Shown here: positions 23,923-58,436 of the stretch, one piece after another
Layout: the number at the start of each line of letters is the position of its first letter
Position numbering within the stretch: the stretch's first letter is position 1
DNA from: Alphaproteobacteria bacterium
GTDB taxonomy: Bacteria; Pseudomonadota; Alphaproteobacteria; Caedimonadales; UBA9215
Length of the DNA stretch: 64,000 nt
Assembly: GCA_024281375.1 (NCBI GenBank)
Contig: JAJSAD010000044.1
Location: 5,614 to 69,613, forward strand
Direction: 5' to 3'
The notes under the pieces: generated by a model
Told to the model about the DNA's origin: nothing
What the model saw: only the letters and a program-made list of their open reading frames with translations
Database searches by the model: none
Program-made: the position numbers and the translations under genes

Positions 23923-24038
23923 AAAAACAGAAGAAAAAACGAAAAGAAAAGAATGTTTCCGGCAGCGAAAAACAGCTTTTTGGGGGCTGACTTTTTGCCT
24001 CAATTCGTTATATTACAGGATATATAAGAGATATGTAT

Positions 24039-24115
24039 GTGCCCGTAGCTCAGTTGGATAGAGCACAGGATTCCTAATCCTGGGGTCGGAAGTTCGAATC
24101 TTCTCGGGCACACCA
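24039..24115 (+). tRNA. tRNA-Arg (anticodon CCT)
   Basis: GTGCCCG/CGGGCAC acceptor stem, D-arm AGCTCAGTTGGATAGAGC, anticodon loop TTCCTAA, T-arm GGAAGTTCGAATCTTCT and an encoded CCA. Confidence 0.9.
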
Positions 24116-24292
24116 CTATTCTCAATAAGTCAAATTCAAAAAAAGGGGCTTTTGCAGCATAAATGAAATATCTAAGACTTTCCTGCCATTTCTGAAGCAT
24201 TACGGGGGTGTCTTTAAAGAAAAACTCACAAATCCCAAAAAAAGGCTTTCCTTTTAAGGCTGTTTTCGCTACAAAGAAGACATCCTAAGAGT

Positions 24293-24367
24293 GGGTGTTT
24301 AGCTCAGCGGGAGAGCATCTCGTTTACACCGAGACGGTCGGGGGTTCAAATCCCTCAACACCCACCA
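24293..24367 (+). tRNA. tRNA-Val (anticodon TAC)
   Basis: GGGTGTT/AACACCC acceptor stem, anticodon loop TTTACAC, T-arm GGGGGTTCAAATCCCTC and an encoded CCA. Confidence 0.9.
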
Positions 24368-24463
24368 TTCTTTTTCTATAAATCCACCTCTATTCCCCCC
24401 GTCGACCTTATCTTAAAAACGTGTATACTTTTCTTATAGTCGTTCCAAAAAGGTTTATGATAT

Positions 24464-25840
24464 ATGCTTCGTGGTCTTTGTGAGGAAATTAGTCGTCTCA
24501 CCCCCGTCCATCCTTTTGGATTTGTGACCTCTATTGTGGGGAGTATCATTGAGGTGAGTGGCCTTCAAAAGATTGTTTCTGTTGGATCGGTATGCCGCCT
24601 TGAAAATCGAGCAGGCATTTCTTTCCCTTGTGAGGTTGTTGGCTTTAAAAACGACCAAACTCTCGTCATGGGATATGATTCTATTGATGGCCTGGGGCCT
24701 GAGTGCAAAGTCACGTATGAAGGTCACCATAATGTGATCTATCCCCATGAAAGCTGGTTAGGACGCACCCTAGATGGCTTTGGCGTGCCTATTGATTCTA
24801 AAGGGCAATTGCCTTCTGGCCCCCAATCTTATGACCTTAATGCTTCTCCTATTCCAGCCCATAAACGTCGCCTTGTGGAAAATCGCATAGACCTTGGGGT
24901 GCGGGCTATGAATACTTTTACAACCTGTTGTGCGGGACAACGCATGGGGATTTTTGCAGGCTCTGGCGTGGGTAAGTCTATCCTTTTATCGATGCTCGCA
25001 AAATTTTCCAAAGCTGAAACCATTGTCATTGGCCTCATTGGAGAGCGGGGACGTGAAGTCAAAGAATTCATTGAAAAGCACCTTGGGGAAGAGGGCATGG
25101 CAAAAAGCGTTGTGGTTGTTGCGACCTCCGATGAGCCCGCTCTCATGCGTCGCCGTGCCGCGTACACAACCCTATCCATTGCGGAATATTTTAGAGATCA
25201 AGGTAAAGAAGTCCTCTGTTTGATGGATAGTGTGACGCGTTTTGCCATGGCGTTGCGAGAAATTGGCCTTTCTATTGGGGAGCCTCCCACAACAAAGGGC
25301 TACACACCCAATGTGTTTGTAGAGCTTCCCCGGCTTCTTGAGCGTAATGGTCCTGGCAGTGATCTCCACAAACAACACCAGGGCAATATCACAGGGCTTT
25401 TCACTGTTTTGGTGGAGGGAGATGATGATAACGAGCCCATTTCTGATACCACTAGAGGCATTCTTGATGGGCATATTATGTTGGATCGTAAGATTGCGGA
25501 GCGGGGCCGTTATCCAGCCATTAATATCTTGCGCAGTATTTCAAGAACCATGCCTGACTGTAATAATGCCGAGGAATCAGAGCTCATCCAACGGGCAAGA
25601 GAGTACCTTTCCACTTACGATGATATGGAAGAACTTATTCGTCTCGGCGCGTATCGCAAGGGCTCTAACCCCAAGGTCGATGAAGCCATTCAATACTATG
25701 AACAACTGGACCCCTTTATCTCCCAAAGCAAAGATAGACAAATCACTTTTGAAGATGGTTTTGAGACTCTTGCAACGATCTTCGGCTGTCAAGAAAAGGA
25801 AAGTGAAACGACTGAAATCGTCAGCGGATTTGAAAGCTAG
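24464..25840 (+). CDS. fliI: flagellum-specific (type III secretion) ATPase FliI
   Basis: Walker A FAGSGVGKSILL, Walker B VLCLMDSVTRFA and the GSITGLFTVLVEGDD-type motif (GNITGLFTVLVEGDDDNEPI). Confidence 0.9.
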   Translation: MLRGLCEEISRLTPVHPFGFVTSIVGSIIEVSGLQKIVSVGSVCRLENRAGISFPCEVVGFKNDQTLVMGYDSIDGLGPECKVTYEGHHNVIYPHESWLGRTLDGFGVPIDSKGQLPSGPQSYDLNASPIPAHKRRLVENRIDLGVRAMNTFTTCCAGQRMGIFAGSGVGKSILLSMLAKFSKAETIVIGLIGERGREVKEFIEKHLGEEGMAKSVVVVATSDEPALMRRRAAYTTLSIAEYFRDQGKEVLCLMDSVTRFAMALREIGLSIGEPPTTKGYTPNVFVELPRLLERNGPGSDLHKQHQGNITGLFTVLVEGDDDNEPISDTTRGILDGHIMLDRKIAERGRYPAINILRSISRTMPDCNNAEESELIQRAREYLSTYDDMEELIRLGAYRKGSNPKVDEAIQYYEQLDPFISQSKDRQITFEDGFETLATIFGCQEKESETTEIVSGFES

Positions 25841-25910
25841 AATTGAATGAGTCATATATTAAAAAAGGGTTTCTTTTTGTTGATATCCTTGGCATAGTAG
25901 AATTGAAGTA

Positions 25911-26545
25911 TTGAGTTATGCGATAGATATGAAAGACGACAGTCCGAGACCGAGCTTGCAAGATGCAAGTACCATGACCTCTTCTCCTATGGTCGATTTT
26001 AGCGACCTCTCTCAACACCACGTTGATATCTTAATCCATGAATCTAAATGGAAAGACGATCTTTCTTTTGATTTTCACTCTGTTATCCATAAGTGTTTTG
26101 CTGTAACCGTGCAAGATATTGTCAAATCTAAGGCTATTTTTGAGTTGAGTATCCTTTTAACAAATGATGCAGAAAGCCAAAAACTAAACCAAGCTTATCG
26201 GCAACAAGATAAACCCACTAATGTACTCTCTTTCGAATCAGGGGAGCCCATTCAACATCTTGCGGCTCAACACCAACAGATCATAGCGGAGGAGGGGGCT
26301 CAAGTGCTTACTCCTAAAGCTATTCCCTTGGGAGATATTGCCCTTTCCTATGAAACGCTTTTGCGGGAATCACAGGAGCAAAACAAAACTTTTGAAGATC
26401 ACTTTACGCATTTGATGATTCATGGGCTTCTTCACCTTTGGGCTTTGACCATACAACGGATCTGGAGGCTGACACCATGGAAGCCCTTGAAATCAACCTT
26501 TTAAAAAAACATTTTCATCTCAATAATCCTTATAGGACACCCTAG
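25911..26545 (+). CDS. ybeY: endoribonuclease YbeY, interrupted by a 1-nt deletion in a T-run inside the catalytic His motif
   Basis: The track ORF reads HLMIHGLLHLWALTIQ... and stops at 26504. Shifting by +1 at TTT 26437-26439 gives [32 protein letters not shown]... (canonical HxxxHxxxxxH). That frame ends at TAG 26543-26545, 4 nt before the next gene. The N-terminal start is uncertain. Confidence 0.75.
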
Positions 26546-26549
26546 GAAC

Positions 26550-27398
26550 ATGGAACAACCCTCTTTATTATCACGCTTTTTGGGGCTTTTTAAAAAGAAA
26601 GAAGACAGCGATGTGCGCGAAGCTATTTCCGAGCTCATTGCCGAGAATGAAACCGATACAGACTCCTCCTTAAATGAAGAAGAAAGAGAACTTTTTAGCA
26701 ATATACTTGCTCTTCAAGAAATGACCGTTGAAGATGTTATGATCCCTCGAGCAGATATGGTGGCACTTCCTCTGGAGGCAACTTATGAGGAAACCGTTGC
26801 TCTTATGCACTCTAAGAATTATTCACGTTTTCCTATTTTTTCTGAAAAAATGGATGATATACGCGGGTTCATCCATATCAAAGACATTTCTAACGCACTT
26901 AATACCAAAGATTTTGATTGCCGTAAAATTCTGTGTCGTATTCTTTTTGTGCCAACATCTATGCCCGTGATGGATTTGCTCAGTAAAATGCGTAAAGAAC
27001 AAATTTCCATTGCTATTGTGGTGGATGAATTTGGAGGGACAGACGGTGTTGTAACGGCATGGGATATTTTGCGGGAAATCTTAGGAGATATGGATATGAC
27101 AGAACATGAAGATGTAAACGCCAAACTTATTCAAGAAGAGGGAGGCTCTTACTTAGCGGATGCGAGATACCCCATTGATGACCTTGAAGAAGAACTTGGA
27201 TTGACCTTAACCGATGCTGAGATGGAAGAAGAAGTTGATACCGTTGGGGGTCTTGTTCTTTACTTAGCGGGTCGCGTCCCTGATCGAAAAGAAGTGATTG
27301 AGCACCCTGCCGGTTTTGAATTCGAAGTCGTTGAGGCAACACCTCGGGCGCTTTTAGAAATCCGTATCTCAAAAAAAGATGCTGGAACATCAATATAG
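26550..27398 (+). CDS. corC: CBS-pair/CorC_HlyC domain protein (CorC/YbeX family)
   Basis: Two CBS domains followed by a transporter-associated C-terminal domain. The position downstream of ybeY is conserved. Confidence 0.8.
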   Translation: MEQPSLLSRFLGLFKKKEDSDVREAISELIAENETDTDSSLNEEERELFSNILALQEMTVEDVMIPRADMVALPLEATYEETVALMHSKNYSRFPIFSEKMDDIRGFIHIKDISNALNTKDFDCRKILCRILFVPTSMPVMDLLSKMRKEQISIAIVVDEFGGTDGVVTAWDILREILGDMDMTEHEDVNAKLIQEEGGSYLADARYPIDDLEEELGLTLTDAEMEEEVDTVGGLVLYLAGRVPDRKEVIEHPAGFEFEVVEATPRALLEIRISKKDAGTSI

Positions 27399-27430
27399 CC
27401 ATTCTCAAAAAGCCCCAGACATCATTCACG
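27397..27430 (+). repeat. MITE/RPE-like element, left-arm-only copy d
   Basis: AGCCATTCTCAAAAAGCCCCAGACATCATT matches the left arms of copies a and b. The corC TAG (27396-27398) sits at the element edge. Confidence 0.7.
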
Positions 27431-27666
27431 TATAAATAAAATTTAGTAACTATAATGTTTTAGTCCAGACCAGAGCTCCCGGAAAATAAACCCAATCGGG
27501 TTGAAAATTAAATTTAGAAGCCGCTAAGAGAAAAAATCAACCCGAAAGGGTTGATTTCAGATTGGAGTCCCGGCCAAGCTAAAACATCCATATCATTTTC
27601 CATAATATATATTATGCGACTTATCTATCTTAAATATGCAACTTTTCAGCACCCTCTTTATAAAGG

Positions 27667-27709
27667 CGGACATTTCCAAATTGCTCAACCGGACATTTCC
27701 AAATTGCTC
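27667..27709 (+). repeat. perfect 20-nt direct repeat, period 23
   Basis: CGGACATTTCCAAATTGCTC at 27667-27686 and again at 27690-27709. Confidence 0.9.
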
Positions 27710-27798
27710 TTACATATCCAAATAAAGTATTGAAACGTTTTTATCCAGAATATTATTCATAATCTTCTGAATGGAAATAAAAAAGTAAGCTGCAGAAG

Positions 27799-27847
27799 TG
27801 GTGTGCTCGAGAAGATTCGAACTTCCGACCCCAGGATTAGAAATCCT
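27799..27847 (-). pseudogene. tRNA-Arg 3' fragment (anticodon stem to CCA; TCT at the anticodon position)
   Basis: The minus strand reads AGGATTTCTAATCCTGGGGTCGGAAGTTCGAATCTTCTCGAGCACACCA. It differs at 2 positions from the same part of tRNA-Arg(CCT) at 24039-24115. No D-arm or 5' acceptor strand lies upstream. Confidence 0.8.
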
Positions 27848-27868
27848 CTTCTCATCACTTCTCTAGTT

Positions 27869-27914
27869 GATTCAAAAGGTTCTAGACGACGTCTGAGACC
27901 TTTTTGAATTGACT
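27869..27914 (+). repeat. MITE/RPE-like element, collapsed copy e (arms only, forms a hairpin)
   Basis: GATTCAAAAGGTTCTAGACGACGTCTGAGACCTTTTTGAATTGACT. The right arm is identical in its last 17 nt to copy a. Confidence 0.75.
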
Positions 27915-27928
27915 ATAAAAGCTTATTA

Positions 27929-27943
27929 TTGACAAATAGTCAA
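27929..27943. promoter_or_regulatory. palindrome TTGACAAATAGTCAA (copy 2), followed directly by TATAAT
   Basis: 53 nt separate the site from the ATG of the secreted protein gene at 27997. A TATAAT lies at 27945-27950. Confidence 0.45.
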
Positions 27944-27996
27944 ATATAATTCAACCTAAAAATAGGGCAACTTGCTCTAAAACAGGGAGATAGACT

Positions 27997-28632
27997 ATGA
28001 AACAAAATCTTTATTATTCAATTATATTTCTACTATCAATATCTTACACTCATTCAAGCGCCTTAAGTGACAGGGAGGCTGCTCAACTTTTAGCCGATGA
28101 AGAACTGGCTCAAAGCCTTGCCCTTGAACACCCCGTTCTTGATGGCGTTTGGATGCCGAAATCTGTTCGAGACTCCTATGCTTCTTATGATAAAGCTGTC
28201 ACAATAGGTGTGAAATTTGATATGAATGTCCATACCTTTAATGCTGTCACAGGACTAAGAACACGCTTGCCTATTCTCATGGCTAACGATATTTTTTCAG
28301 ATGAAACGAGGGGCTTTGCAGAAACACGCGCCGCTATCGAAGCCAGCGATTATTACCAAGATTTTGCAAAAAAAGCCGTGCTTGGCGCAAATCTTGATAG
28401 ATTAGCTGCTCACCTAACAACCTCAAAAATAGAAGCCAGTGAAACAGGAACAGATGTGGAAAAACTTTTGTCAAGGGTTTGGTCCCTGGGGCTTACGAAC
28501 GAAAGCTTCGCCCAACAAATCCTCATCAGTATTTGTGATAATTCTGAAACAGGGGGAGGATGTTACCAAGGACATGCCGGTCGATTAGCTCGCCTTTATG
28601 TCAATTTTTTACGCGCTCAATGGCTTGAGTAA
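27997..28632 (+). CDS. secreted hypothetical protein
   Basis: 211-aa ORF with signal-like MKQNLYYSIIFLLSISYTHSSA. No confident domain. Confidence 0.55.
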   Translation: MKQNLYYSIIFLLSISYTHSSALSDREAAQLLADEELAQSLALEHPVLDGVWMPKSVRDSYASYDKAVTIGVKFDMNVHTFNAVTGLRTRLPILMANDIFSDETRGFAETRAAIEASDYYQDFAKKAVLGANLDRLAAHLTTSKIEASETGTDVEKLLSRVWSLGLTNESFAQQILISICDNSETGGGCYQGHAGRLARLYVNFLRAQWLE

Positions 28633-31134: not shown

Positions 31135-32160
31135 ATGACAACACAGCCTTTAAAAATTGCTATCAACGGTTTTGGCCGCATTGGACGCTTAGCCTTGCGA
31201 GCCCTCATGGAAAACAAGGCAACGGATATCCAAGTCGTTGCCATTAATGACCTCTCCCCTCCAAAAACAAATGCACACTTGTTCAAATATGATTCCATCC
31301 ATGGCCTTTTTCCGGGTCCTGTTGTGCTCTGTGCTGAAACGGCGAAAAGCCTTGATGTGGGCAAGGGGGAAATCAAACTCTTTCAAGAACGAGACCCTGC
31401 AAACCTCCCCTGGGGTGATCTTGGCGTGGATATTGTCTTTGAGTGTTCGGGTGCTTTCGCGTCCAAAGACGCTTCTAACGCGCACCTTAACGCAGGGGCC
31501 AAAAAGGTTATCATTTCTGCGCCCGCCCCCGGTGTCGATTTAACCGTTGTCTATGGCGTGAATCACCAAGAACTTGCTGCTGACCATGATATTATCTCCA
31601 ATGCGTCCTGTACGACCAATTGTCTTGCTCCCTTAGCGAAAGTCCTCAATGATTCCTGTGGCATTAAGCACGGCTTTATGACCACCATCCATGGATATAC
31701 AGGAGATCAACGCCTTGTAGATACTCATCATGCGGACCTCCACCGCTCACGGGCTGCGGCGATCTCGATGATTCCGACCTCCACGGGAGCCGCTAGAGCC
31801 GTTGGCCTGGTTCTCCCTGAGCTCAAAGGTAAAATTGATGGCACGGCCATTCGGGTGCCAACGCCTAATGTCTCGGTAGTGGATTTTAAATTCACGGCCA
31901 AGAAATCCACAACCGTCGAAGAAATCAACACCGCTTTAAAAGAAGCCTCCCGTGGCCCTCTCAAGACTGTTCTTGAAACCTGCGACATTCCCCTTGTGTC
32001 CATTGATTTTAACCATAATTCCCACAGCAGCATTGCAGACCTTACCCAAACCCAAGTCGTCGAAGAGACCTTTTGTCGCGTTTTATCATGGTATGATAAC
32101 GAGTGGGGATTTTCAAACCGCATGCTCGACGTAGCACGTGTTATGGGGCAATTCATTTAA
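31135..32160 (+). CDS. gap: glyceraldehyde-3-phosphate dehydrogenase
   Basis: INGFGRIGR Rossmann motif, the active site SNASCTTNCLAP and WYDNEWGFS. Confidence 0.95.
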   Translation: MTTQPLKIAINGFGRIGRLALRALMENKATDIQVVAINDLSPPKTNAHLFKYDSIHGLFPGPVVLCAETAKSLDVGKGEIKLFQERDPANLPWGDLGVDIVFECSGAFASKDASNAHLNAGAKKVIISAPAPGVDLTVVYGVNHQELAADHDIISNASCTTNCLAPLAKVLNDSCGIKHGFMTTIHGYTGDQRLVDTHHADLHRSRAAAISMIPTSTGAARAVGLVLPELKGKIDGTAIRVPTPNVSVVDFKFTAKKSTTVEEINTALKEASRGPLKTVLETCDIPLVSIDFNHNSHSSIADLTQTQVVEETFCRVLSWYDNEWGFSNRMLDVARVMGQFI

Positions 32161-32417
32161 TGGATATCATGAGCGGCATTGTTGTTTTTTTCACCTTGTG
32201 GTGGGTTGTCTTGTTTATGGCACTCCCCTTTGGAGTTCACTCGAGGGGAGCTCACTCAACGGTCACACCAGAATCTGGCCACGACCACGGAGCGCCAGAG
32301 AAATCTTACCTCAAGGTAAAACTCCTCGCAACAACCCTTGTCACGATAATCCTCTGGTTTGGCATTGATTACTTAATTAGCATCAAAATCATAAACTTTA
32401 GAGAACTAGCAGGTTAA
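32160..32417 (+). CDS. small membrane protein (DUF1467-like)
   Basis: MDIMSGIVVFFTLWWVVLFMALPFGV... with two TM helices. The ATG overlaps the gap stop (TAATG). Confidence 0.6.
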   Translation: MDIMSGIVVFFTLWWVVLFMALPFGVHSRGAHSTVTPESGHDHGAPEKSYLKVKLLATTLVTIILWFGIDYLISIKIINFRELAG

Positions 32418-32420
32418 CAG

Positions 32421-32535
32421 AAATTTCAGTCTTCTTGTTTTTCGTGCTCCGCGTCCCCTTGAATCACATAGTGTCCCATGAACCAATTCCCAAGGTCAAC
32501 ATCTTTGCAACGCTTTGAGCAAAACGGCCTAAAAG
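32421..32535 (-). repeat. partial duplicate of the yacG 3' end plus its downstream flank (direct repeat with 33371-33490)
   Basis: ~115 bp nearly identical to 33371-33490 (GTTTTTCGTGCTCCGCGTCCCCTTG[A/G]ATCACATAGTGTCC...CAAGGTCAACATCTTTGCAACGCTTTGAGCAAAA). It would encode ...FCSKRCKDVDLGNWFMGHYVIQGDAEHEKQED but lacks the 5' half of yacG. Confidence 0.9.
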
Positions 32536-32549
32536 AGCTCACAACTTCT

Positions 32550-33356
32550 TTACTTAGCATAAATAATCGGTAAAATATGTTTCAAAGTCTTATAAGTACT
32601 TTTAGTATTTTTTCGATTAAACGTAATTATATTTAAAAGCTCCATATACCCAGGAATACGATCAGAATCTATTTTACCAAGCCGCTCAATCATAAAACCA
32701 GTGCTGAGAGCCGTCATATAATCCTTTTCAAATTCCTTGACCAGAGGAACCAAAGCCTCAACAACGGTTGCTCGTTTTTCAGGGAAAACCTTGGAGAGGT
32801 AGTCAACAACATACTTATAATCCCTAATATACCTATAATCCCCTTCTGTTTCTGTTTTAAAGAGGTCTGTGAGGGGTTTTGCATTATCCACCAATTCTTG
32901 GGCAGCTCTGACAGAGCCTTGTTCCAAGAAAACCCGGAGAAGGTTTAGGGTAGCTTCGGCATCCTTTGGCTCTGGAACAACAGCCCTTAAAACCTTCATA
33001 TACCTAGGGATATCTTCAGCCTCTACTTCCTCAAGTTTCTCAATCATCAAACCAGTGTAGAGAGCCACTAGAGAATCTAATTTAAATCCTGCCTTCAATG
33101 GCACCAAAGCTTCCACAATAGGTAAAAAACAACGGGGCTCTAATTTTTCTAATTTTCTAAAAATCCTTTTTTTATCTCCTTCTTTTTCAAAATTAAAAGC
33201 ACTCATTGCGACTAAGATTTTAAGAGAAGGAGGACTTTTGCTTACCTCTTTATCACCTTCTACTAAAGAAGCCCAACTCTCACAAGAAGATAGAATGAAG
33301 AGAAAAAATAGTCCCCCCACAAGTCCCTTAAACATATTTTTCATCTCCAACATCAT
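32550..33356 (-). CDS. lipoprotein with two internal ~45-aa repeats (orphan cassette gene)
   Basis: Lipobox LFILSSC. Internal repeats IVEALVPLKAGFKLDSLVALYTGLMIEKLEEVEAEDIPRYMKVL and VVEALVPLVKEFEKDYMTALSTGFMIERLGKIDSDRIPGYMELL. Confidence 0.65.
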   Translation of the reverse strand: MMLEMKNMFKGLVGGLFFLFILSSCESWASLVEGDKEVSKSPPSLKILVAMSAFNFEKEGDKKRIFRKLEKLEPRCFLPIVEALVPLKAGFKLDSLVALYTGLMIEKLEEVEAEDIPRYMKVLRAVVPEPKDAEATLNLLRVFLEQGSVRAAQELVDNAKPLTDLFKTETEGDYRYIRDYKYVVDYLSKVFPEKRATVVEALVPLVKEFEKDYMTALSTGFMIERLGKIDSDRIPGYMELLNIITFNRKNTKSTYKTLKHILPIIYAK

Positions 33357-33381
33357 TCTGTCCTCTTCATAAATTTTTCAG

Positions 33382-33531
33382 CTAGTCTTTCTGTTTTTCG
33401 TGCTCCGCGTCCCCTTGGATCACATAGTGTCCTGTGAACCAGTTGCCAAGGTCAACATCTTTGCAACGCTTTGAGCAAAAAGGCCGAAAAACACGCACGG
33501 CTTTCTTTTTATGGCACAAAGCACAGGACAT
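33382..33531 (-). CDS. yacG: DNA gyrase inhibitor YacG (zinc finger)
   Basis: MSCALCHKKKAVRVFRPFCSKRCKDVDLGNWF with the CxxC...CxxxC pattern. ATG 33531 is preferred over 33567. Confidence 0.75.
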   Translation of the reverse strand: MSCALCHKKKAVRVFRPFCSKRCKDVDLGNWFTGHYVIQGDAEHEKQKD

Positions 33532-33566
33532 GTTAAGTTCTTTTTTCTCTGGTGATATTGTCAACA

Positions 33567-34811
33567 TTAATGATCTCCTAGAAGTTGCTTTAAAGATACT
33601 TCATCTTTACGCTTTGTCATCTCTAAAAGTCCTGACTTTGTAAAGCCCAGTACTTGCAAGGTAGAATCCTCATATCCTTTGGCCATTTTTAAAAGGGCTT
33701 TTTGGTGTTTAGCATTAGAAAGTCGGGGTAAATCAATCAAAATAATACCGCCAATTTTGCGTAAATAAAGCTGTCGAATGGATTCATTCAAGGCCATCTG
33801 AGCAAACTCAAAACGATCATTATCTGAGGTGAGCTTAACGGACCTTGTGATCTGAGAATCTCCCGGAGCCGCCGTATTCACATCAATGGCCGTGAGGGTA
33901 TGTCCTTCTTCGACTAGTAAATACCCTCCGCCCTGTAAGGGAACAAGGTCATCAAGAACACTCTCTTTATAAGAAGAAAAATCCTTTTTCCAAGAGGGTT
34001 GAAGAGTGAAGGTGAGACGACTTTTAGAAACGCCCGCTTGCTTCATCACCACAATAAGATCAGCGTTATCCGTAAAAATAGGTTCCTTGTGATTCTCGCT
34101 TAGGTAAAAAAGCCAAGGACGTTGAGGGGTGTAAAGAACTGTCCCAATTTTTTCCACCTTATCATAATGGCTTTGGAGATCAGTCCAACGCTGACGGGTT
34201 TTCTCAAGGTCTTTCAGGATATTTTGAGAACTCTGACTATAAGAACACCCTTTTAACACAAGGCCTTCTCGCTCATCGGCCACACGCCCAAGATGCTCAA
34301 GCATCTCTTTCTTCCACTCTTTATCCCGAATTTGAGCTGAAAAATTGAGGCCTTTCTTACCGGGCGTGTAATAAAGAAAACGTCCTGATAATGAAATAGC
34401 ATCGGATACTTCTGGGTTCTTGAGGATATATTTTTCTAAAAGAGGTGGGCGTTTAAGCTGTACAAAAACCTTTTCACCCTGAGTATAATTGTGACGAGGA
34501 CGCTGCAACAAGGCTGGTTTTTGAAAGCCAATATCTACCCAGAAATTAGGGCCTTCTTTTGCCTGGATGCGCCCTACATATAATGACCCCGCTAAAGGGG
34601 CTCCTTGATCCACCAAAATATGAAGGAGCTCCCCCTCTTGCACATGAAGGAGCGTCAAAGTTTCCCCCTTTTTTTCAAGGTAAATACCGTTATCCATAAA
34701 ACCTATTAGTCTTTGTTCATTAAAACCCCACCCTACAAGAAAATGACTCTTTGATAAATAGAGAATGCCCCTAGGCAAATACCGTTGAATGTTATATAAA
34801 TTATGTATCAA
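33567..34811 (-). CDS. rng: ribonuclease E/G family protein
   Basis: S1-like [21 protein letters not shown] and the catalytic-core motif [12 protein letters not shown]...GGIILIDLP. 414 aa. Confidence 0.7.
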
Positions 34812-35381: not shown

Positions 35382-38095
<2,714 letters not shown>

Positions 38096-38663: not shown

Positions 38664-39260
38664 TCATATCAAGCACCCAAGCTGAAGTGTGGCCTGATTT
38701 TGACGCCCGTCATAAGCAGAATCTGCGAGAATTGTTTCGACACGAGGACACCATTTTTTCATCTTCTCACCAAGAGGAATCACCATATCTCGATCTTGAA
38801 TGCCTGCTGAAGTCACTTTTGTGGCTAAAATTAATCCAAGAGTATCAACCATAATATGACGCTTGCGCCCATTTATACACTTATAACCATCAAACCCTTT
38901 TGATATTTTTTTTCCAGACCGGCTTTTAACGGATTGACTATCTATAATAGCAACGGAAGGAGAAGAGGTTTTTCTAATGTTTGTGCGAACGTCTTGCCGA
39001 AAAGCAGACATCATTTCCTCTAAGGCACCGCTATTGCGCAATTTTCTTAGATGACCGTAAACCGTTTTCCAGTGAGGAAATTCCTTCGGCGACATCCGCC
39101 AACTACAGCCACTACGTGTCATATAGAGTATTGCATTCCAGTGTTCACGAAGGCGAGCTGAAGGCGGACGACCCTGCTTATTGTACTGATCTTTATAAAA
39201 ATAATGAAGGCGCTCCCACTGAGAATCAGTAAGGTCACTTGGGTATCTTTTTTCTTGCAT
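38664..39260 (-). mobile_element. IS5-family DDE transposase gene, 3'-decayed remnant
   Basis: The N-terminal YPSDLTDSQWERL...GRPP...NAILYMTRSGCSWRMSPKEFPHWKTVYGHLRKL region is DUF4096-like. DDE residues lie in AIIDSQSVK and ILADSAYDG. The frame ends at a TGA. The same frame continues with decayed similarity (RFVTKKIWDLRR) and another stop, and the catalytic E region is not recognisable. Confidence 0.7.
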
Positions 39261-39472: not shown

Positions 39473-39547
39473 TGGTGGGTACGGCTGGGATTGAACCAGC
39501 GACCCCCACGATGTCAACGTGGTGCTCTCCCGCTGAGCTACGCACCC
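39473..39547 (-). tRNA. tRNA-Val (anticodon GAC)
   Basis: The minus strand reads GGGTGCGTAGCTCAGCGGGAGAGCACCACGTTGACATCGTGGGGGTCGCTGGTTCAATCCCAGCCGTACCCACCA. Confidence 0.9.
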
Positions 39548-40787: not shown

Positions 40788-42356
40788 ATGATCATTCAGT
40801 CTGAAACGACTGCACCCTTTACGCCTGCTTTTAGCTCCTTGCGTAAACTCTTTTGGCCCATTCATCGTCGCGAGCTTAAAAAATTCCTCCCTATGACCCT
40901 TATTATGTTTTGCGCGCTTTTCAATTACACGCTCTTGCGTAATATGAAGGATGCGCTCGTCATTACAGCCTCGGGGCCTGAGGTCCTCCCCTTCTTAAAA
41001 GCCTTTGTGATCTTGCCTTTTTCTCTACTCATTGTGGCCGGCTATGCGAAGTTATGTAATGTTTTTGACCGACAAAAAGTCTTCTATATTGTGATTTCAG
41101 TCTTTGTTGGCGTTTATATTTCCTATGCGTTGTTCATTCACCCCAATATTGAATACCTCCACATGGACCCCAAACGCCTTAAAGAGCTCCAGGAAACGTA
41201 CCCTAATTTTCAGCATTTCTTCTCGGTTATTGCCAATTGGAGCAGCAGCCTTTTTTACCTGTTTGCAGAGCTTTGGGGAGCAACGACCATCAGCCTCATG
41301 TTCTGGCAACTGGCCAACGAAATCACCCGGGTCCAAGAAGCCCGGCGTTTTTATACCATGTTCGGATTACTGGGGCACTTTGCGCTAATAGCAGCCGGAA
41401 AACTCGGGAAATCCCTTTGTGATATTCGCCATACCTCCGCGAGTGCTGATGAAGGATGGACCTATTTTATCAACTATAATATCGTGGCTATTGTGATTTC
41501 TGCTGGACTTATTATGCTCATTTATTGGTGGATGAATCACCGCGTTTTAACGGACCCGAAGTACTATGATGAATGCAATAAGATCGCGTCCAACAAAGCC
41601 ATCAAAACAAAGCTTTCCCTCGCGGAAACAATAAAATATGTTAGTCAATCTAAATACTTAGGCTATATTCTTCTTATGGTTATTGGCTATGGCCTTGCTA
41701 TGAATTTGTCAGGTATCTTGTGGAAAAAGCAGGTGCAAATTCTCTATCCCAATCCCCTTGATTATGCCAATTTTCTAGCAGAATTCGCCGTATGGGTTGG
41801 GTTCATTACCATCACCCTCATTTTTTGTCTCAAAGGAATGGTCGAGCGTTTTGGCTGGTATCGAGCCGCCATGGTCACGCCCCTTATTGTCGCGGCAACT
41901 GTCATTCCTTCCTTTATCTTTATGTTCTTTCAAGAGGACATCACTCCTCTTTGTTCCTGGACAGGTTGCACGGCGCTGACCCTTGCCGTTACCATTGGGG
42001 GAGCCCAACAAATCCTGAGCAAAAGTGGCAAATATTCCATGTTCGACCCCACAAAAGAGATGGCCTACATCCCCCTTGATCAAGAGCTCAAAATAAAAGG
42101 AAAAGCTGCTGTTGATGTTTCTGGGTATAGTCTTGCCAAAGCCAGCGGAGGCTATATCGCAGGCGCCCTCCTGGTTATCACAGCCGCAAGCGACTTGATG
42201 GTCATTGCGCCTTACTTAGCAGCCATTGTTATTGCTATTGTTATTGTGTGGATTATCGCCGTTAAGAAACTGAGTTTTCTATACCGTAGCCTTGTTAACA
42301 AAGCCAAACCCCGGGATGTACAGACCTTTACCAATCCAGAGAAAGTTATTAGATAG
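40788..42356 (+). CDS. tlc: ATP/ADP (nucleotide) translocase, Tlc/NTT family
   Basis: 522 aa and 12-TM-like. The N-terminus LRKLFWPIHRRELKKFLPMTLIMFCALFNYTLLRNMKDALVIT is typical of Rickettsia/Chlamydia NTTs. Confidence 0.9.
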   Translation: MIIQSETTAPFTPAFSSLRKLFWPIHRRELKKFLPMTLIMFCALFNYTLLRNMKDALVITASGPEVLPFLKAFVILPFSLLIVAGYAKLCNVFDRQKVFYIVISVFVGVYISYALFIHPNIEYLHMDPKRLKELQETYPNFQHFFSVIANWSSSLFYLFAELWGATTISLMFWQLANEITRVQEARRFYTMFGLLGHFALIAAGKLGKSLCDIRHTSASADEGWTYFINYNIVAIVISAGLIMLIYWWMNHRVLTDPKYYDECNKIASNKAIKTKLSLAETIKYVSQSKYLGYILLMVIGYGLAMNLSGILWKKQVQILYPNPLDYANFLAEFAVWVGFITITLIFCLKGMVERFGWYRAAMVTPLIVAATVIPSFIFMFFQEDITPLCSWTGCTALTLAVTIGGAQQILSKSGKYSMFDPTKEMAYIPLDQELKIKGKAAVDVSGYSLAKASGGYIAGALLVITAASDLMVIAPYLAAIVIAIVIVWIIAVKKLSFLYRSLVNKAKPRDVQTFTNPEKVIR

Positions 42357-45815: not shown

Positions 45816-46433
45816 ATGATTAAAATATTTACCTTATTATCCATAATAACTTTAACGACCTTCACTAGTTTTTCAGCACAGGCCTCTGCCTCAGCGTCAG
45901 CCCAAGAAGAAGCCTCTGATAGATCTTATGTTCGCCAAGCGCCCTCTATTCAATTTTCTGACCTGAAACCGGCTCATTTAGAATTTAAAGAATCTACCAT
46001 TCATCTTGGGGATCAAACATGGTGCTTGCATTGGGTGGGACAACAATATCAACCCATTACAGCCACTTACCCAGAAGGTCAATATGACATTAGTGTTAGT
46101 CTTGTTGAGGATATCGGCCTTCATTCAGCAACTTCAGGTCCTAAATTTGCGACCTATTCTATTAAAGCCATACCAAAAGATGGGTCTGTTATTAAAAATA
46201 CCTTTTTACACTTTCACTTAATGCTTCCAATGGAATGTTCTGGTCATAGTGCAGCAAAAATGTACGATAACAAAGAATTTGAAGGGTACGATGCAGATTA
46301 TGATACACCTGCTTCTGACTCAGAATCGGAATCTGACTCTAGCTCTGACGATGAAGCCGCCCAAGGTGGATATGTGGATTTCGCGGATTTAAAAAATCGT
46401 CTAAGGGATCATCGCTCTTACCCTCTTGGATGA
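45816..46433 (+). CDS. secreted hypothetical protein, paralog B, with acidic Ser/Asp tail
   Basis: Signal MIKIFTLLSIITLTTFTSFSAQA. Motifs DQTWCLHW and PMECSGHSAAKMYDNKEF, with the tail SDSESESDSSSDDE. A TTGACA-N17-TAGGAT promoter candidate lies at 45778-45806. Confidence 0.6.
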   Translation: MIKIFTLLSIITLTTFTSFSAQASASASAQEEASDRSYVRQAPSIQFSDLKPAHLEFKESTIHLGDQTWCLHWVGQQYQPITATYPEGQYDISVSLVEDIGLHSATSGPKFATYSIKAIPKDGSVIKNTFLHFHLMLPMECSGHSAAKMYDNKEFEGYDADYDTPASDSESESDSSSDDEAAQGGYVDFADLKNRLRDHRSYPLG

Positions 46434-47389
46434 GTTTTTGCATAGACCTTAGCCAAATGGCTAGGGTCTATTTTTGTATAACGCTGAGTTGTGGAGAGTG
46501 AGCTATGCCCTAAGAGTTCTTGAATAGAACGCAAATCCGCCCCTCCTTGCAACAGATGAGTTGCAAAGGAATGACGCAGCGCATGAGGCGTTGCTGTTTC
46601 CGGTAATCCCATACTCAAGCGCAGCCGCTGCAATTGACGTTGAGCAACGGCCGGATTTAAGGGCCCTCCCCGTTTTCCTATAAAAAGGGGAGCACTGGGG
46701 GTGTGTTGCTGGGGATGCAACTGAATATAATCCTCAACTCTCTCTTTTACCTGAGGTAATAAGGGGACAAGACGCTCTTTTTTACCTTTTCCTTTAATGG
46801 TAAGAAAACGCCCCCCCTCTTTCATGCCATTAATATCCAGGGAAAGAGCCTCAGAAATCCGCAATCCACACCCATATAGCAAGGCAAACAAGGCTTGATC
46901 TCGGGCCTCTACCCAAGGTTCCTGTTCCTCCAAAGAGTTTTCAGACGTCAGAGCAATGGCCTCATCTTGATTTAAGGGCCGGGGAAGGCTATCCAAGAAT
47001 TTTGCAGCTTTTAGAATAAGAATAGCTTGGTTTTCAATATTATGATGTTTTTTAAGGTATTTAAAAAAGGTCTTTAAAGATGAAACCGCTCGGGCGTTCG
47101 ATCGATGACTCCCCCCCTCCCCTAAACGATTAGCTAGAAAGCTGCGAAAATCTCGTAGATCAAGTCTCGATAGGTCATTTAGTTTGAGAGCCGTCCCTCG
47201 ATGGTCTCTTTGAAAAACACAAAAACTCTTTAAATCATGGAGGTAATTTTTCACTGTATGGTCTGAAACTCGGCGTTCGAAGACCATATTCTTAATCCAC
47301 AAGGAAATAGCTTCCCTTAAATCAGGAGCCACAAAATCATAAAAAGGAGCAAGAAGTATGTCAATGTTCATAGAAACATTATTCCACAA
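46418..47389 (-). CDS. tyrosine site-specific recombinase, XerC/XerD family
   Basis: ARDQALFALLYGCGLRISE, HALRHSFATHLLQGGADLRSIQELLGHSSLSTTQRYTKI (R-H-R-Y catalytic set). Confidence 0.85.
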   Translation of the reverse strand: MWNNVSMNIDILLAPFYDFVAPDLREAISLWIKNMVFERRVSDHTVKNYLHDLKSFCVFQRDHRGTALKLNDLSRLDLRDFRSFLANRLGEGGSHRSNARAVSSLKTFFKYLKKHHNIENQAILILKAAKFLDSLPRPLNQDEAIALTSENSLEEQEPWVEARDQALFALLYGCGLRISEALSLDINGMKEGGRFLTIKGKGKKERLVPLLPQVKERVEDYIQLHPQQHTPSAPLFIGKRGGPLNPAVAQRQLQRLRLSMGLPETATPHALRHSFATHLLQGGADLRSIQELLGHSSLSTTQRYTKIDPSHLAKVYAKTHPRG

Positions 47390-50687: not shown

Positions 50688-52019
50688 TTACGCAGCAGAA
50701 TTTTTCTTAGCAGCCTCTGCTTCTTCAACGATTTCAGAAAGTCTGCGATTTAATTCAATAAAGGCCTCATTAATGTCTTCTGACGTTTTAGAAATTTTTC
50801 CAGAGATTTCTTTTGTTTCCCGCGCTTTTTCATTAATCTGTTCAGCCCTTGATTTACTTTGTTCGGACTCTGCAGAAACACCTTCAATGTGATTCGCAAT
50901 GTCAGACGTTGCCGCATTTTGCTCTTCAACGGCTCCCGAAATAATCGTCGCGATTTCATTCATCTCGTTTACCGTACTATCAACAGACTTAAAAAGTTCA
51001 GCAGTTTCATTAATGTTTCCCTGAATCACTGTCACTTGACTCGTAATTTCTTCTGTTGCTTTTTCCGTTTGGTTCGCAAGATTTTTCACTTCTGAGGCCA
51101 CAACGGCAAAGCCCTTACCGGCCTCCCCTGCCCTCGCAGCTTCAATGGTTGCATTCAAAGCCAACAAGTTAGTTTGAGAGGCAATTTTGTTAATCATTTG
51201 AATGACATCGCCAATGGTTGTGGCACAGGTAACCAAATCATCAATCTTGCCCTGAGCCATTTGAGTCTTATTAACGGCTTCTCCTGTAATACCAGAGGAC
51301 CTGGCAACCTGATCACTGATTTCTTTAATGGCTTCTCCAAGCTCTTGTGAGGTCTCCACAACAGATTTGATCTTTTCTTGGCTCCGCTCAACAGCCTCAA
51401 GGTTTTCTCGGGATAAAGTTTCAATAGATCCGGATATTTTTTGAGACATATCTCCAAGGTCACTTGAGGCCCCTTGAATATTTTCTTTAGCAAAAGTAAA
51501 GGCATCGGTTATTTTAGAACTAATATCATTCAATTGGCGCTGCATGCCTTCTTCTTGACTAGAATCCATATAGGTACTCAATGCCAAATCCATATCAAGG
51601 AGGGCAGCTTTTATGGTTGCTTCAAGGGCAAGTTCTAAGTCTTTTGGATTTTTATTAAGGGCGCCCACAAGAACCTTTGCGATATTACTTAACGCAATGG
51701 CATAGCCTCCGATATACCACTGAGGTTTCAAGTCAACTTGACCATGAACCTTTCCTATTTTTATGATATTTTCAAGGTACGCTTCATTAAACTCTCCAGA
51801 AAAAAGATTAAGCCAATGTCTTCTTTGAGCCGCCTTAGGCTCAACAGTACCATTGGGGAATTTTTCGACCAAATGCTCGTAGGTCGCCACATGAGCATAA
51901 AATCCTTCTAAAATAGGGTCGATATTTTGCTCAAGAGCAGAGGCATTTTTCTTGAGAGTTTCACATAATTTTTCGTCTAGTTGAATAAAATCTAAACGTT
52001 TTTTTAGATCAATTGACAT
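50688..52019 (-). CDS. globin-coupled methyl-accepting chemotaxis protein (HemAT-like)
   Basis: The N-terminal sensor-globin-like region ([33 protein letters not shown]) contains a candidate proximal His. The C-terminal MCP signalling hairpin is [36 protein letters not shown]. Confidence 0.75.
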
Positions 52020-56057: not shown

Positions 56058-58436
56058 TTAAGCCCTGATTGAAATAACTTTATTTTTCGAAATAATCTGA
56101 TTTTGCAAGTTTTCGAATATGTTTTTATGGGCCATTTCCTTCGAAATTAAGAGAAGAGTTTCCACCAAAGGAAGAGGCCTGCTGAAATAATAACCTTGGA
56201 TAAGATAACATCCCATTTCATAAAGCATATCCAGTTGCTCTTTATGTTCAATACCTTCGGCAATAACATCGATGTTTTGAGATTTTGACAAAGCAATAAT
56301 GGCCTTGATCAATTCAAGGTTTTTTGAGTCAACGGTCATTTTATCAACAAATATTTTATCAATTTTCAAATAGTCAAAATCAAACTTATTAAGATAGGAA
56401 AGACTTGAGTATCCTGTCCCAAAATCATCAATCAACACTTCTACGCCCATATTTTTTAACTTCATAAATTTGTTATAGGTTTCCTTTGTGGAATCCAATA
56501 ACAAGCTTTCTGTCACCTCTACCTTTAGGGAACTTGTTGGATTTGGTGAATTTTGAATAAGTTTCAGAATAGAGTTAAAATGCTTATCATTATGAAATTG
56601 CTTAACGGACATATTGATAGAAAAAATAGCTCCTGGATAATCAGGAAGCGTTTTTCGCAAATTTTCCATATCTCGCGAACACAACTCAAAACATTTTTTC
56701 CCTAAGTCCAAAATAAGGCCCGATGACTCTGCTAGCTTAATAAAAATCGCCGGGGGGATAGAGCCTAATTCCGGATGGTGCCACCGACACAAAGCTTCAA
56801 AATAAGCAATACGACCAGATTTAATATCAACAATAGGCTGATAATACATTTCAATATCATCTGTTTTGATCGCTTCCTCTAAATCTTTTAACATTTTTAT
56901 TTCAGAATTTATTTTCTCAACAAATTGGGAATCAAAAACACAAATACGTCCTTTACCTAATTTTTTGGCTTTATACATCGCCTTATCAGCTTTGTATAAA
57001 ATATTATCCTCTTGTTCATGGCTACTATCCAACATCAGTAAACCAATGCTTACAGAGTTCTTTACCTCCGTATTTTCAAGGTAAAAAGTCCGACAGCAAT
57101 TCTCTAAGATACGTTCAGCAATTTCATAAGCCTCTCCTTCATCCTCAACGGAATCCAGTAAAACAACAAATTCATCCCCCCCGAATCGTGATACCGTATC
57201 GCTTTGGCGCACACAAGCCGAAATGGACTTTGCGATTATTTTTAAGGTTTCATCACCCAAAGCATGTCCATGTTTATCATTAATATCTTTAAAATCATCC
57301 ACATCCAAGAAAATAACCGACGATTTATCAGAATCAATCCGTGATAAATTTTTCAGATTATGATGAAGGCGATCAACAAATAAATCTCTATTGGCAAGCC
57401 CCGTCAAAGAATCATAAAAAGCGGCATGATGAAGGGACTTAATAAATTTTTCTTGAGTCGTGAATAAATGAAGGCGTTCTAAAACAATAGACAACTGGGA
57501 TGAAAATATTTCTATAGCTTTACGAGATAATAAATGATCTTCAGTCCCTTTAAAGGAAAAAAATTCAATAACAGCAACGAGTTCATTCGAGATTTTTATA
57601 GGTATAAAGAGGCATGTTTTCACGACCTTAAAGAAAGAAGTCAATTTTTTAGATTTCTTTGAAAAATTTTCTTTCCTCAGAAAAAGACATTTACTTTTTT
57701 TACTTTTTAAGTCTTGAATTTTTGGAGAAAAGTCGCCTTCTAAATCCCTCCTATAGGTATAAATAGTATCATTTTCCTCTCCATCACTGTTAACATAGAG
57801 GTCATCCAATTTTTTTAAAAATGCGTCACTCTGTATATTATGGAAATAAGCTGCGTCCATGCCTATATAACGCAATGTTAAAAGCAACATATCAACAATA
57901 GCTTCTTTGAAATCATTATTACGGCTTGAGGCTCTAGACATATGATAAAAATAAGTGGAATGCTTCTCACGTTCATCAATATAAGAAGAAAGAGAAATGC
58001 TAATATCTATTAAAGTGCGATTTGTTATATGATTTAGGATTTTTTCTACACGTTGCGGATCTGTAGAGTGGTCTTCGAAAACTTTATTTTGCAGGTAGGT
58101 AATAATTTTTTTATAACCCAAAATATAAAGCTCTGAAGAAATATTATGCTCATCATGTTTTTGACCAATTTGTATTGATTTTTCTCGAACGACATTGATA
58201 TCAGCACTTAAGAGCAACTCTATCCAATGCTGACTTTGTTTTTGAATAAGGACCTTACGTTTAGCGGCAGAAAAATGAAATATTTTTTGTGTTTCTAAAA
58301 AATCATAAAGCTCGATCAAAGCCCCTTTGATATGTTTTTTTAAAAAATGTTCTAAAATAACATATTCATCTTTATTGCTCTCAAAATAACAAGAGTCAAT
58401 AAAATCATAGAAGCGACTCCGAGTACCGTTATTCAT
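56058..58436 (-). CDS. GGDEF-EAL protein with N-terminal sensor-globin-like and GAF-like regions
   Basis: Intact RQSD-N5-GGDEF (VRQSDTVSRFGGDEFVVLL) and intact EAL signatures (YFEALCRW, DDFGTGYSSLSYL, KIDKIFV, IAEGIE, QGYYFSRP). The N-terminus (QSQHWIELL, IQIGQKHDEHNISSELYILGY) parallels the globin region of the MCP at 50688-52019. Confidence 0.8.
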   Translation of the reverse strand: MNNGTRSRFYDFIDSCYFESNKDEYVILEHFLKKHIKGALIELYDFLETQKIFHFSAAKRKVLIQKQSQHWIELLLSADINVVREKSIQIGQKHDEHNISSELYILGYKKIITYLQNKVFEDHSTDPQRVEKILNHITNRTLIDISISLSSYIDEREKHSTYFYHMSRASSRNNDFKEAIVDMLLLTLRYIGMDAAYFHNIQSDAFLKKLDDLYVNSDGEENDTIYTYRRDLEGDFSPKIQDLKSKKSKCLFLRKENFSKKSKKLTSFFKVVKTCLFIPIKISNELVAVIEFFSFKGTEDHLLSRKAIEIFSSQLSIVLERLHLFTTQEKFIKSLHHAAFYDSLTGLANRDLFVDRLHHNLKNLSRIDSDKSSVIFLDVDDFKDINDKHGHALGDETLKIIAKSISACVRQSDTVSRFGGDEFVVLLDSVEDEGEAYEIAERILENCCRTFYLENTEVKNSVSIGLLMLDSSHEQEDNILYKADKAMYKAKKLGKGRICVFDSQFVEKINSEIKMLKDLEEAIKTDDIEMYYQPIVDIKSGRIAYFEALCRWHHPELGSIPPAIFIKLAESSGLILDLGKKCFELCSRDMENLRKTLPDYPGAIFSINMSVKQFHNDKHFNSILKLIQNSPNPTSSLKVEVTESLLLDSTKETYNKFMKLKNMGVEVLIDDFGTGYSSLSYLNKFDFDYLKIDKIFVDKMTVDSKNLELIKAIIALSKSQNIDVIAEGIEHKEQLDMLYEMGCYLIQGYYFSRPLPLVETLLLISKEMAHKNIFENLQNQIISKNKVISIRA

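Follow-up and report, generated by a model that had tools for sequence, protein, structure and literature searches.

Two diverged copies of the yacG 3' end flank a single putative lipoprotein gene in a Holosporales-like alphaproteobacterium

The repeat and the gene between its copies

We analyzed a stretch of 64,000 nucleotides (nt) from contig JAJSAD010000044.1 of the alphaproteobacterial assembly GCA_024281375.1 (hereafter the window), in which a single putative lipoprotein gene, here named lpp, is enclosed by two direct copies of the 3' end of the housekeeping gene yacG. A repeat search, combined with reading of the sequence between positions 31800 and 34200, identified this as the only long direct repeat in the window. 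The raw coordinates of the search (32428–32547 and 33384–33503) were refined by hand through pairwise alignment, which placed copy A at 32418–32534 (117 nt) and copy B at 33368–33490 (123 nt), both corresponding to the yacG 3' end and both on the minus strand. An earlier note on this DNA, made from the sequence alone, had reported the repeat within 3 nt of these limits. The features of the locus, including the open reading frame (ORF) that covers copy A, are as follows.

32160–32417, plus strand: DUF1467 gene (Pfam PF07330, E 6e-21), convergent with yacG'; presumed resident flank of the insertion
32418–32534, minus strand: repeat copy A, a 5'-truncated yacG 3' end of 35 codons with stop codon TGA (32426–32428) and 8 nt beyond it
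32426–32560, minus strand: yacG' ORF of 44 codons, which contains copy A; its ATG overlaps the lpp stop codon (ATGCTAAGTAA)
32490–32524, with its partner at 33446–33480, minus strand: 35-nt identity block, candidate crossover segment
32535–33367, minus strand: interval between the repeats, 833 unique nt made up of 11 nt with a ribosome-binding site, lpp and 15 nt
32550–33356, minus strand: lpp, putative lipoprotein with lipobox LSSC and two all-alpha modules of about 95 amino acids (aa) each
33368–33490, minus strand: repeat copy B, the last 35 codons of intact yacG with stop codon TAG (33382–33384) and about 14 nt downstream
33382–33567, minus strand: intact yacG, 61 aa (Pfam PF03884, E 7e-15; NCBIfam YacG), its sequence present in the NCBI-derived protein collection
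33567–34697, minus strand: RNase E/G-family gene (P0003, 376 aa), directly upstream of yacG; presumed source of read-through into lpp

As the earlier note had recognized, copy B is the end of an intact yacG (PF03884, E 7e-15), the product of which retains all four zinc-ligand cysteines and the invariant tryptophan, and copy A is a 5'-truncated piece abutting DUF1467, its homology stopping at 32418, directly beside the DUF1467 stop codon (32415–32417). Each copy is somewhat longer than the roughly 95 nt of yacG plus 12 nt given there, comprising 105 coding nt, the stop codon and about 9–14 nt downstream. Similarity 5' of the repeat core is not above chance level (p 0.2–0.28), which defines a sharp upstream boundary; for the same reason we rejected the possibility that a decayed full-length yacG lies beneath the 3' end of lpp. 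Within the repeat, the two copies of the 35-nt block are 100% identical, and this block occurs exactly twice in the window, with no match in 100 shuffles of the sequence.

Copy A matches the YacG profile at positions 16–51 only, so that the first CxxC pair is absent and the tryptophan and tail are kept; the four-cysteine treble-clef zinc finger of YacG (PF03884) is thus lacking from copy A and from the 44-aa ORF around it. The yacG' ORF retains the second cysteine pair, the tryptophan of the DLGNW motif and the isoleucine seven residues further on (Ile(+7)). No Shine-Dalgarno sequence was found upstream of its ATG, and the ORF is absent from the NCBI-derived protein collection, not having been called as a gene.

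The interval between the copies holds one gene only, at the position and with the lipobox (L-S-S-C) that had been described before. Its product of 268 aa (267 aa in the NCBI gene call) starts with a signal peptide that ends in FLFILSSC, fits the bacterial lipobox [LVI][ASTVI][GAS]C and is therefore predicted to be lipidated; the homologous proteins P0002 and P0021 carry LFSC and LSSC at this place. The earlier note had described two internal repeats of about 45 aa. Self-alignment instead delimits two modules of about 95 aa (residues 54–144 against 166–262, 36% identity), with a score of 138 compared to a maximum of 47 after shuffling. The AlphaFold2 model of the product is all-alpha, with 12 helices following the signal peptide (predicted local distance difference test score, pLDDT, 80), and it has no meaningful neighbor in the PDB.

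The view that lpp lacks recognizable homology is correct as far as Pfam, NCBIfam and PHROG families are concerned, none of which matched the protein. It does not extend to individual sequences: among 5.8 billion proteins there is one close homologue (P0002, 47% identity), and an exhaustive profile search recovered five distant ones. P0020 (locus L010) is the only distant homologue with a readable context, and its neighborhood is unrelated to yacG. P0002 is encoded on a 77.5-kb NCBI contig, and a contig of equal size holds no detected RNase G homologue, so this lpp is probably not located beside RNaseG-yacG. The lpp module (about 45–95 aa) is also repeated many times in a secreted protein of 690 aa (P0024), which in turn weakly matches (22–25% identity) a protein of 956 aa whose gene lies upstream of tkt in a TARA relative (L011/L012, 4689–7559). 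These similarities suggest that exported proteins with helical repeats form a wider family in the clade.

The start of lpp is preceded by the ribosome-binding site GAGGA (33361–33365), which lies inside the 11-nt upstream gap. No promoter-like or terminator-like site was found between yacG and lpp. With a ribosome-binding site but no room for a promoter, lpp probably relies on transcription that reads through from the RNase G-yacG operon. The only inverted repeat found is a 20-nt pair (80% identity) near the ends of lpp, which lies within the coding sequence and is at chance level.

Divergence of the two yacG ends

Over their 35 shared codons, copies A and B differ at nine nucleotides (91.4% identity). 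The changes are synonymous in seven codons and alter the encoded residue in two (Thr/Met and Lys/Glu), which amounts to 6.5 synonymous and 2.5 non-synonymous differences (Sd and Nd), a synonymous divergence (dS) of 0.45, a non-synonymous divergence (dN) of 0.03 and a ratio of the two (omega) of 0.066. Approximately one third of the synonymous sites differ, compared to two of 35 residues. The non-coding tail of about 13 nt past the stop codon carries two indels and one substitution. The copies had been described as near-identical, which holds for their overall identity and misses the depth of their synonymous divergence. They are not fresh duplicates: they are old at neutral sites and nearly identical as protein.

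We simulated the divergence under a model in which copy A has been neutral since its duplication and copy B constrained, conditioned on nine nucleotide differences. Two or fewer amino acid differences are then obtained with a probability of 0.0045, compared to 0.69 when both lineages are constrained. The low value for a neutral copy A implies that this copy diverged mostly as part of a selected coding sequence. Therefore, either one of the copies would be a yacG end that evolved independently and was imported, or selection would be acting on copy A itself. The changes blind to codon position that are expected from a segmental or tandem duplication with a decaying pseudo-copy are not seen (omega 0.066, P = 0.0045). 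Nor do the data fit the earlier suggestion that the insertion mechanism duplicated a long segment of the target, as the copies do not appear to have been identical at birth (omega 0.07, P = 0.0045).

A natural benchmark for such a pair, from an insertion proven to be integrase-mediated, is available in E. coli K-12, where prophage e14 is integrated in icd and supplies a replacement 3' end, and the displaced native end forms the pseudogene icdC (PMC6379469, PMC13626634). We extracted both sequences and found that the icd 3' end and icdC align over 165 nt with 92.7% identity, differing by ten synonymous and two Asp-to-Glu changes (dS 0.36, omega 0.044), with a sharp 5' boundary and homology that runs past the stop codon. 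The repeats of the two systems are thus alike in being about 92% identical with nearly all changes synonymous (over 165 nt in icd/icdC and 105 nt in yacG), in their sharp 5' boundary and in homology that continues a few nucleotides beyond the stop. As icd and icdC carry the same signature as copies B and A, the low omega of a truncated copy requires no present function. By analogy, the low omega at yacG would go back to two alleles, each of which had its own history within a functional gene.

To polarize the differences we used the yacG genes of six relatives. Copy A is derived at codons 2, 3 and 15 (the last one weakly), copy B is derived at codons 16, 24, 33 (weakly) and 34, and codon 19 has changed in both. 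Codon usage is sorted in a similar way: of the six synonymous differences considered, the genome-preferred codon is found in copy B at codons 2, 3 and 15, and in copy A at codons 16, 24 and 33. A single crossover between resident and imported sequence within the 35-nt block (codons 4–14) predicts exactly this mosaic. By our own counting, the probability of the pattern is about 1/35 and 5/64 in the two tests (p about 0.03–0.08), which is suggestive of a crossover inside the identity block.

Known systems, relatives and the origin of the locus

We consider that there is a slightly better than even chance that the locus was left by a Campbell-type integration, in which a single crossover at the yacG 3' end brought in DNA carrying lpp together with its own yacG tail. 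The starting point would be a small DNA with a yacG 3' fragment of its own and lpp immediately behind this fragment, acquired from a related but distinct lineage (as the synonymous divergence of about 0.45 suggests). A circular intermediate would have recombined with the resident yacG, probably in the 35-nt identical block. This would yield an intact hybrid yacG, consisting of the resident 5' part and the imported 3' part (copy B) and followed by lpp. The displaced tail (copy A) would consist of an imported 5' stub and the resident 3' part, which still touches its original neighbor DUF1467. The joining could have been carried out by the host RecA or by a site-specific recombinase acting in trans, and the element may always have been about 0.95 kb or may be what is left of a larger island.

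Direct repeats that flank exactly one gene, next to an intact yacG, fit the prediction of a Campbell-type single crossover. The Campbell-type crossover raised in the earlier note is thus supported by the topology of an intact gene, a cargo and a displaced 3' fragment, and the mosaic that would locate the crossover is only suggestive. We also count in favor of this integration the presence in the window of another relic 3'-end copy, that of a tRNA-Arg gene (described below), which is likewise without an integrase.

The closest parallel is the integration of e14 (and of phage 21) at icd: as is proposed for yacG, the element there brings a surrogate 3' end that leaves the target gene intact, and the displaced native end persists as a truncated direct repeat on the far side of the insert. 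Flanking 3'-end repeats beside an intact target and allele-like divergence are both present at yacG, and an internal integrase is absent. Unlike e14, which measures 15.2 kb and encodes intE and xisE, the insert described here carries 0.83 kb of cargo with one lipoprotein gene and no recombinase, and it differs furthermore in its host, a Holosporales-like endosymbiont, and in its target. We know of no report of yacG as an attachment site.

Elements that are flanked by attachment (att) sites and lack recombination genes are known as cis-mobilizable elements (CIMEs), for instance at the 3' end of fda in streptococci. What defines them is a cognate integrative and conjugative element whose integrase also recognizes their att sites, and the repeats measure only tens of bp. 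The yacG locus resembles them in lacking an integrase of its own and in being flanked, at a housekeeping gene's 3' end, by attL/attR-like repeats, but no partner element is known for it and none is present in the window. Another parallel is the hybrid mitochondrial atp6 of Allomyces, which reportedly (Paquin, Laforest and Lang in PNAS, 1994) has a foreign C-terminal coding end together with a mobile ORF, its native end being displaced downstream. The order proposed for yacG is the same: a 3' coding end of foreign origin joined in frame, then a single ORF, then the native 3' end that was displaced. The Allomyces cargo, however, is said to be a homing-type endonuclease that explains its own mobility, whereas lpp encodes an exported helical-repeat protein without nuclease features.

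Genomic islands and prophages inserted at the 3' ends of tRNA and tmRNA genes, such as DLP12 at argU with a 47-bp copy (PMC6379469), show the same principle: the direct repeat is the 3' part of the target, and the gene is restored by sequence of the element (PMC6379469). The yacG locus, in contrast, has a protein-coding target and lacks an integrase, and its repeat copies are longer and less alike. The anatomy and substitution signature are therefore not as novel as had been implied, since both were already seen at icd/icdC (PMC6379469, PMC13626634). Integration behind a restored 3' end is a known style; what is unusual here is the minimal, recombinase-free cargo of a single gene and the choice of yacG as a target.

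The statement in the earlier note that the signature differs from that of an insertion sequence (IS) or an integron cassette agrees with our searches. Insertion of an IS or transposon was rejected, because the interval contains no transposase and no terminal inverted repeats beyond the chance-level pair in lpp, and also because the repeats are 117 nt long and were already diverged at their origin. An integron gene cassette was rejected as well, as neither strand of the repeat forms an attC-like fold (z -1.8 to +2.0), and there is no Rfam hit and no IntI. As for a role of the repeat at the RNA level, we found no Rfam family, no fold that beats shuffled sequences, no shared structure and no site resembling a terminator or promoter to account for it. 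A dif-like site, as used by integrative mobile elements exploiting Xer (IMEX), had no match in the window with an E. coli-type consensus, which may not be that of the host, and the repeat contains no dif-like motif.

We compared the locus with those of eight relatives, all of which have a single yacG and neither lpp nor a second piece of yacG. Judged from these loci, lpp and the repeat appear to be lineage-specific. In relatives with 65%, 46% and 43% RNase G identity the gene order is DUF599 <- infA -> RNaseG -> yacG, followed by tig-clpP; in one locus APC_Aq_097 and a SpoIIAA-like gene precede tig-clpP after yacG. In the 65% group DUF1467 is located elsewhere, with an ankyrin gene between DUF1467 and gap, and APC_Aq_097 follows. 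None of infA, tig, clpP, DUF599 and APC_Aq_097 is found in the 64 kb of the window. A closer relative is represented by P0150, which shares 93% identity over the last 130 aa of glyceraldehyde-3-phosphate dehydrogenase (GAPDH) and is encoded on a Logan contig of 1,284 bp. Scans of genome contigs with RNase G and with the lpp alignment gave no matches, and neither did scans of metagenomes with the lpp alignment or with a degenerate DNA pattern for the yacG motif GNWFxGHYVIQGD.

The contig with the closest RNase G relative (77% identity; L005, an ENA contig of 1318 bp) ends within yacG (1185–1316), 44 codons into the gene, and the break falls in the region that is repeated in the window. This could mean that the repeat exists in this relative too, or could be due to chance at low coverage.

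Several observations weigh against the proposed integration. There is no integrase, excisionase or remnant of either in the interval, and the sole tyrosine recombinase in the 64 kb is encoded 13 kb away (46418–47389) and has an Xer-type architecture. The lpp gene has no match in phage or plasmid collections, and with a GC content of 37.4% (compared to a mean of 43.4 +/- 4.2 for ORFs in the window) it is no outlier, so its composition offers no independent sign of foreign origin. The synteny of the relatives differs on both sides of RNaseG-yacG, and an adjacency of yacG and DUF1467 without lpp was never seen; among the accessible relatives, which are too rearranged, neither a true empty site nor a donor allele was found. 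The mosaic comprises only six to seven sites, and its two tests are not mutually independent. Finally, the cargo fills the interval to within 11–15 nt on each side, which is awkward for a larger island that has decayed.

This last point bears on the alternative that the locus is the remnant of a larger, integrase-bearing island at the yacG 3' end, similar to e14, of which deletions have spared only lpp. The att-type anatomy and the substitution signature are those of e14, the genome holds other relics (the tRNA-Arg half-copy, an IS4/5 transposase fragment and a lone terminase), and one relative has an integrase near tRNA genes downstream of clpP. The deletions would have had to halt within 15 nt of copy A, however, sparing a non-functional copy of 117 nt, and tblastn detected no integrase fragments near the yacG site; we regard such a remnant as unlikely. 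Alternatively, copy A may be an old copy of intragenomic origin that is under selection, its 44-codon ORF being translated as a gyrase-binding mini-YacG. It could have arisen by the copying of 117 nt of yacG to a site downstream of lpp, or through an lpp insertion with a true target duplication. This would account for the omega of 0.07, for 35 codons without indel or stop and for the same position of the stop codon in both copies; translational coupling is possible through the overlap of the yacG' ATG with the lpp stop, and the tryptophan of DLGNW and Ile(+7), which are kept, are the counterparts of Trp40 and Ile47 in E. coli. In that organism an isolated C-terminal peptide of YacG (residues 40–65) is sufficient for weak gyrase inhibition (PMC4083091). 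Selection on copy A is unnecessary, however, given that icdC, an annotated E. coli pseudogene, has an equally low omega. Moreover, yacG' lacks a Shine-Dalgarno sequence, keeps only two of the four zinc ligands and is missing from the gene calls of the protein collection; the sole non-conservative change on the branch of copy A (Thr to Met) falls two residues past the key tryptophan, and independent drift of two copies would not be expected to sort derived and non-preferred codons into such a mosaic. We hold this explanation to be quite unlikely.

A related and improbable scheme combines mobility with function. Here, the yacG 3' fragment and lpp together would form a recombinase-free 'portable-homology' cassette: recombination between the repeats would free a circle of 0.95 kb that re-enters at the conserved yacG tail of related genomes through host recombination alone, and yacG' would be translated, coupled to lpp, as a mini-YacG that docks its tryptophan and tail on gyrase. 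We think it decidedly improbable that the repeat is a by-product of rearrangement or segmental duplication, in which the yacG tail was copied as RNaseG-yacG moved away from infA and tig-clpP, leaving copy A as a decaying leftover. Synteny is indeed broken on both sides of the locus relative to all relatives, but this scenario predicts neutral decay of copy A, for which two amino acid differences among nine nucleotide differences have P = 0.0045, and the tandem-duplication route would require a precise second deletion to remove a second copy of lpp. An assembly artefact, or a chimeric contig from a mixed population, is hardly credible. The assembly has the look of a draft or metagenome-assembled genome (a 99-kb contig, gyrA as two ORFs), but copies that differ by 8.6% and by indels do not result from collapsed or duplicated reads, and where the lpp 3' flank meets copy A, no k-mer is shared with any other site that could give rise to a false join.

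If the single-crossover integration is correct, a reduced intracellular bacterium would have gained the gene for a single surface protein through an insertion that was guided by homology and left the conserved housekeeping gene in front of it undisrupted, and no recombinase borne by the element would have been needed. In other respects, the yacG case would be an ordinary integration scar with a surrogate 3' end. For genome scans, it shows that a 'near-identical' repeat of a gene end can represent two old alleles rather than a fresh duplication. Counting synonymous and non-synonymous differences separates the two, and icd/icdC provides a calibration.

Host lineage and other features of the window

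Judging by homologues of its RNase E/G protein, the window belongs to a Holosporales-like lineage; the best matches other than itself have 77% and approximately 65% identity, and one of them is named Holosporales bacterium. A TLC ATP/ADP translocase (40788–42356) fits an intracellular lifestyle. Two sensors with protoglobin domains are encoded at 50688–52019 and 56058–58436, one fused to a methyl-accepting chemotaxis protein (MCP) signalling domain and the other to GGDEF-EAL, which is an unexpected signalling capacity for a genome with such a translocase. The gene for the target of YacG, gyrA, is present as two overlapping ORFs (35382–37586, 734 aa, and 37532–38095, 187 aa, with DNA_gyraseA_C repeats), reflecting either a frameshift or a sequencing error.

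The GC skew of the plus strand flips from positive to negative within the window, with the cumulative skew peaking at approximately 24000–28000, 5–8 kb from the yacG locus. This suggests that the replication terminus lies inside the window. In the same region, the 3' half of a tRNA-Arg(CCT) gene (24039–24115), from the anticodon stem to the 3' end, is copied in inverted orientation at 27797–27853, 3.7 kb away. The half-copy spans about 52 nt with three mismatches, has no integrase nearby and is located about 5 kb from the yacG locus; it adjoins an orphan ORF (27997–28632) with a signal-peptide-like start and no Pfam match. It has the appearance of a relic att site, left by a tRNA-targeting island and inverted afterwards.

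A truncated transposase of the IS4/5 family (38664–39260; DUF4096 and a partial DDE_Tnp_1) lies beside tRNA-Val(GAC) (39473–39547). At the start of the window, a lone phage-type large terminase (323–1786; Terminase_6N/6C) is followed by an N-acetylmuramoyl-L-alanine amidase with a peptidoglycan-binding domain (1828–2691), a pair that may be the remnant of a prophage or of a gene-transfer agent.

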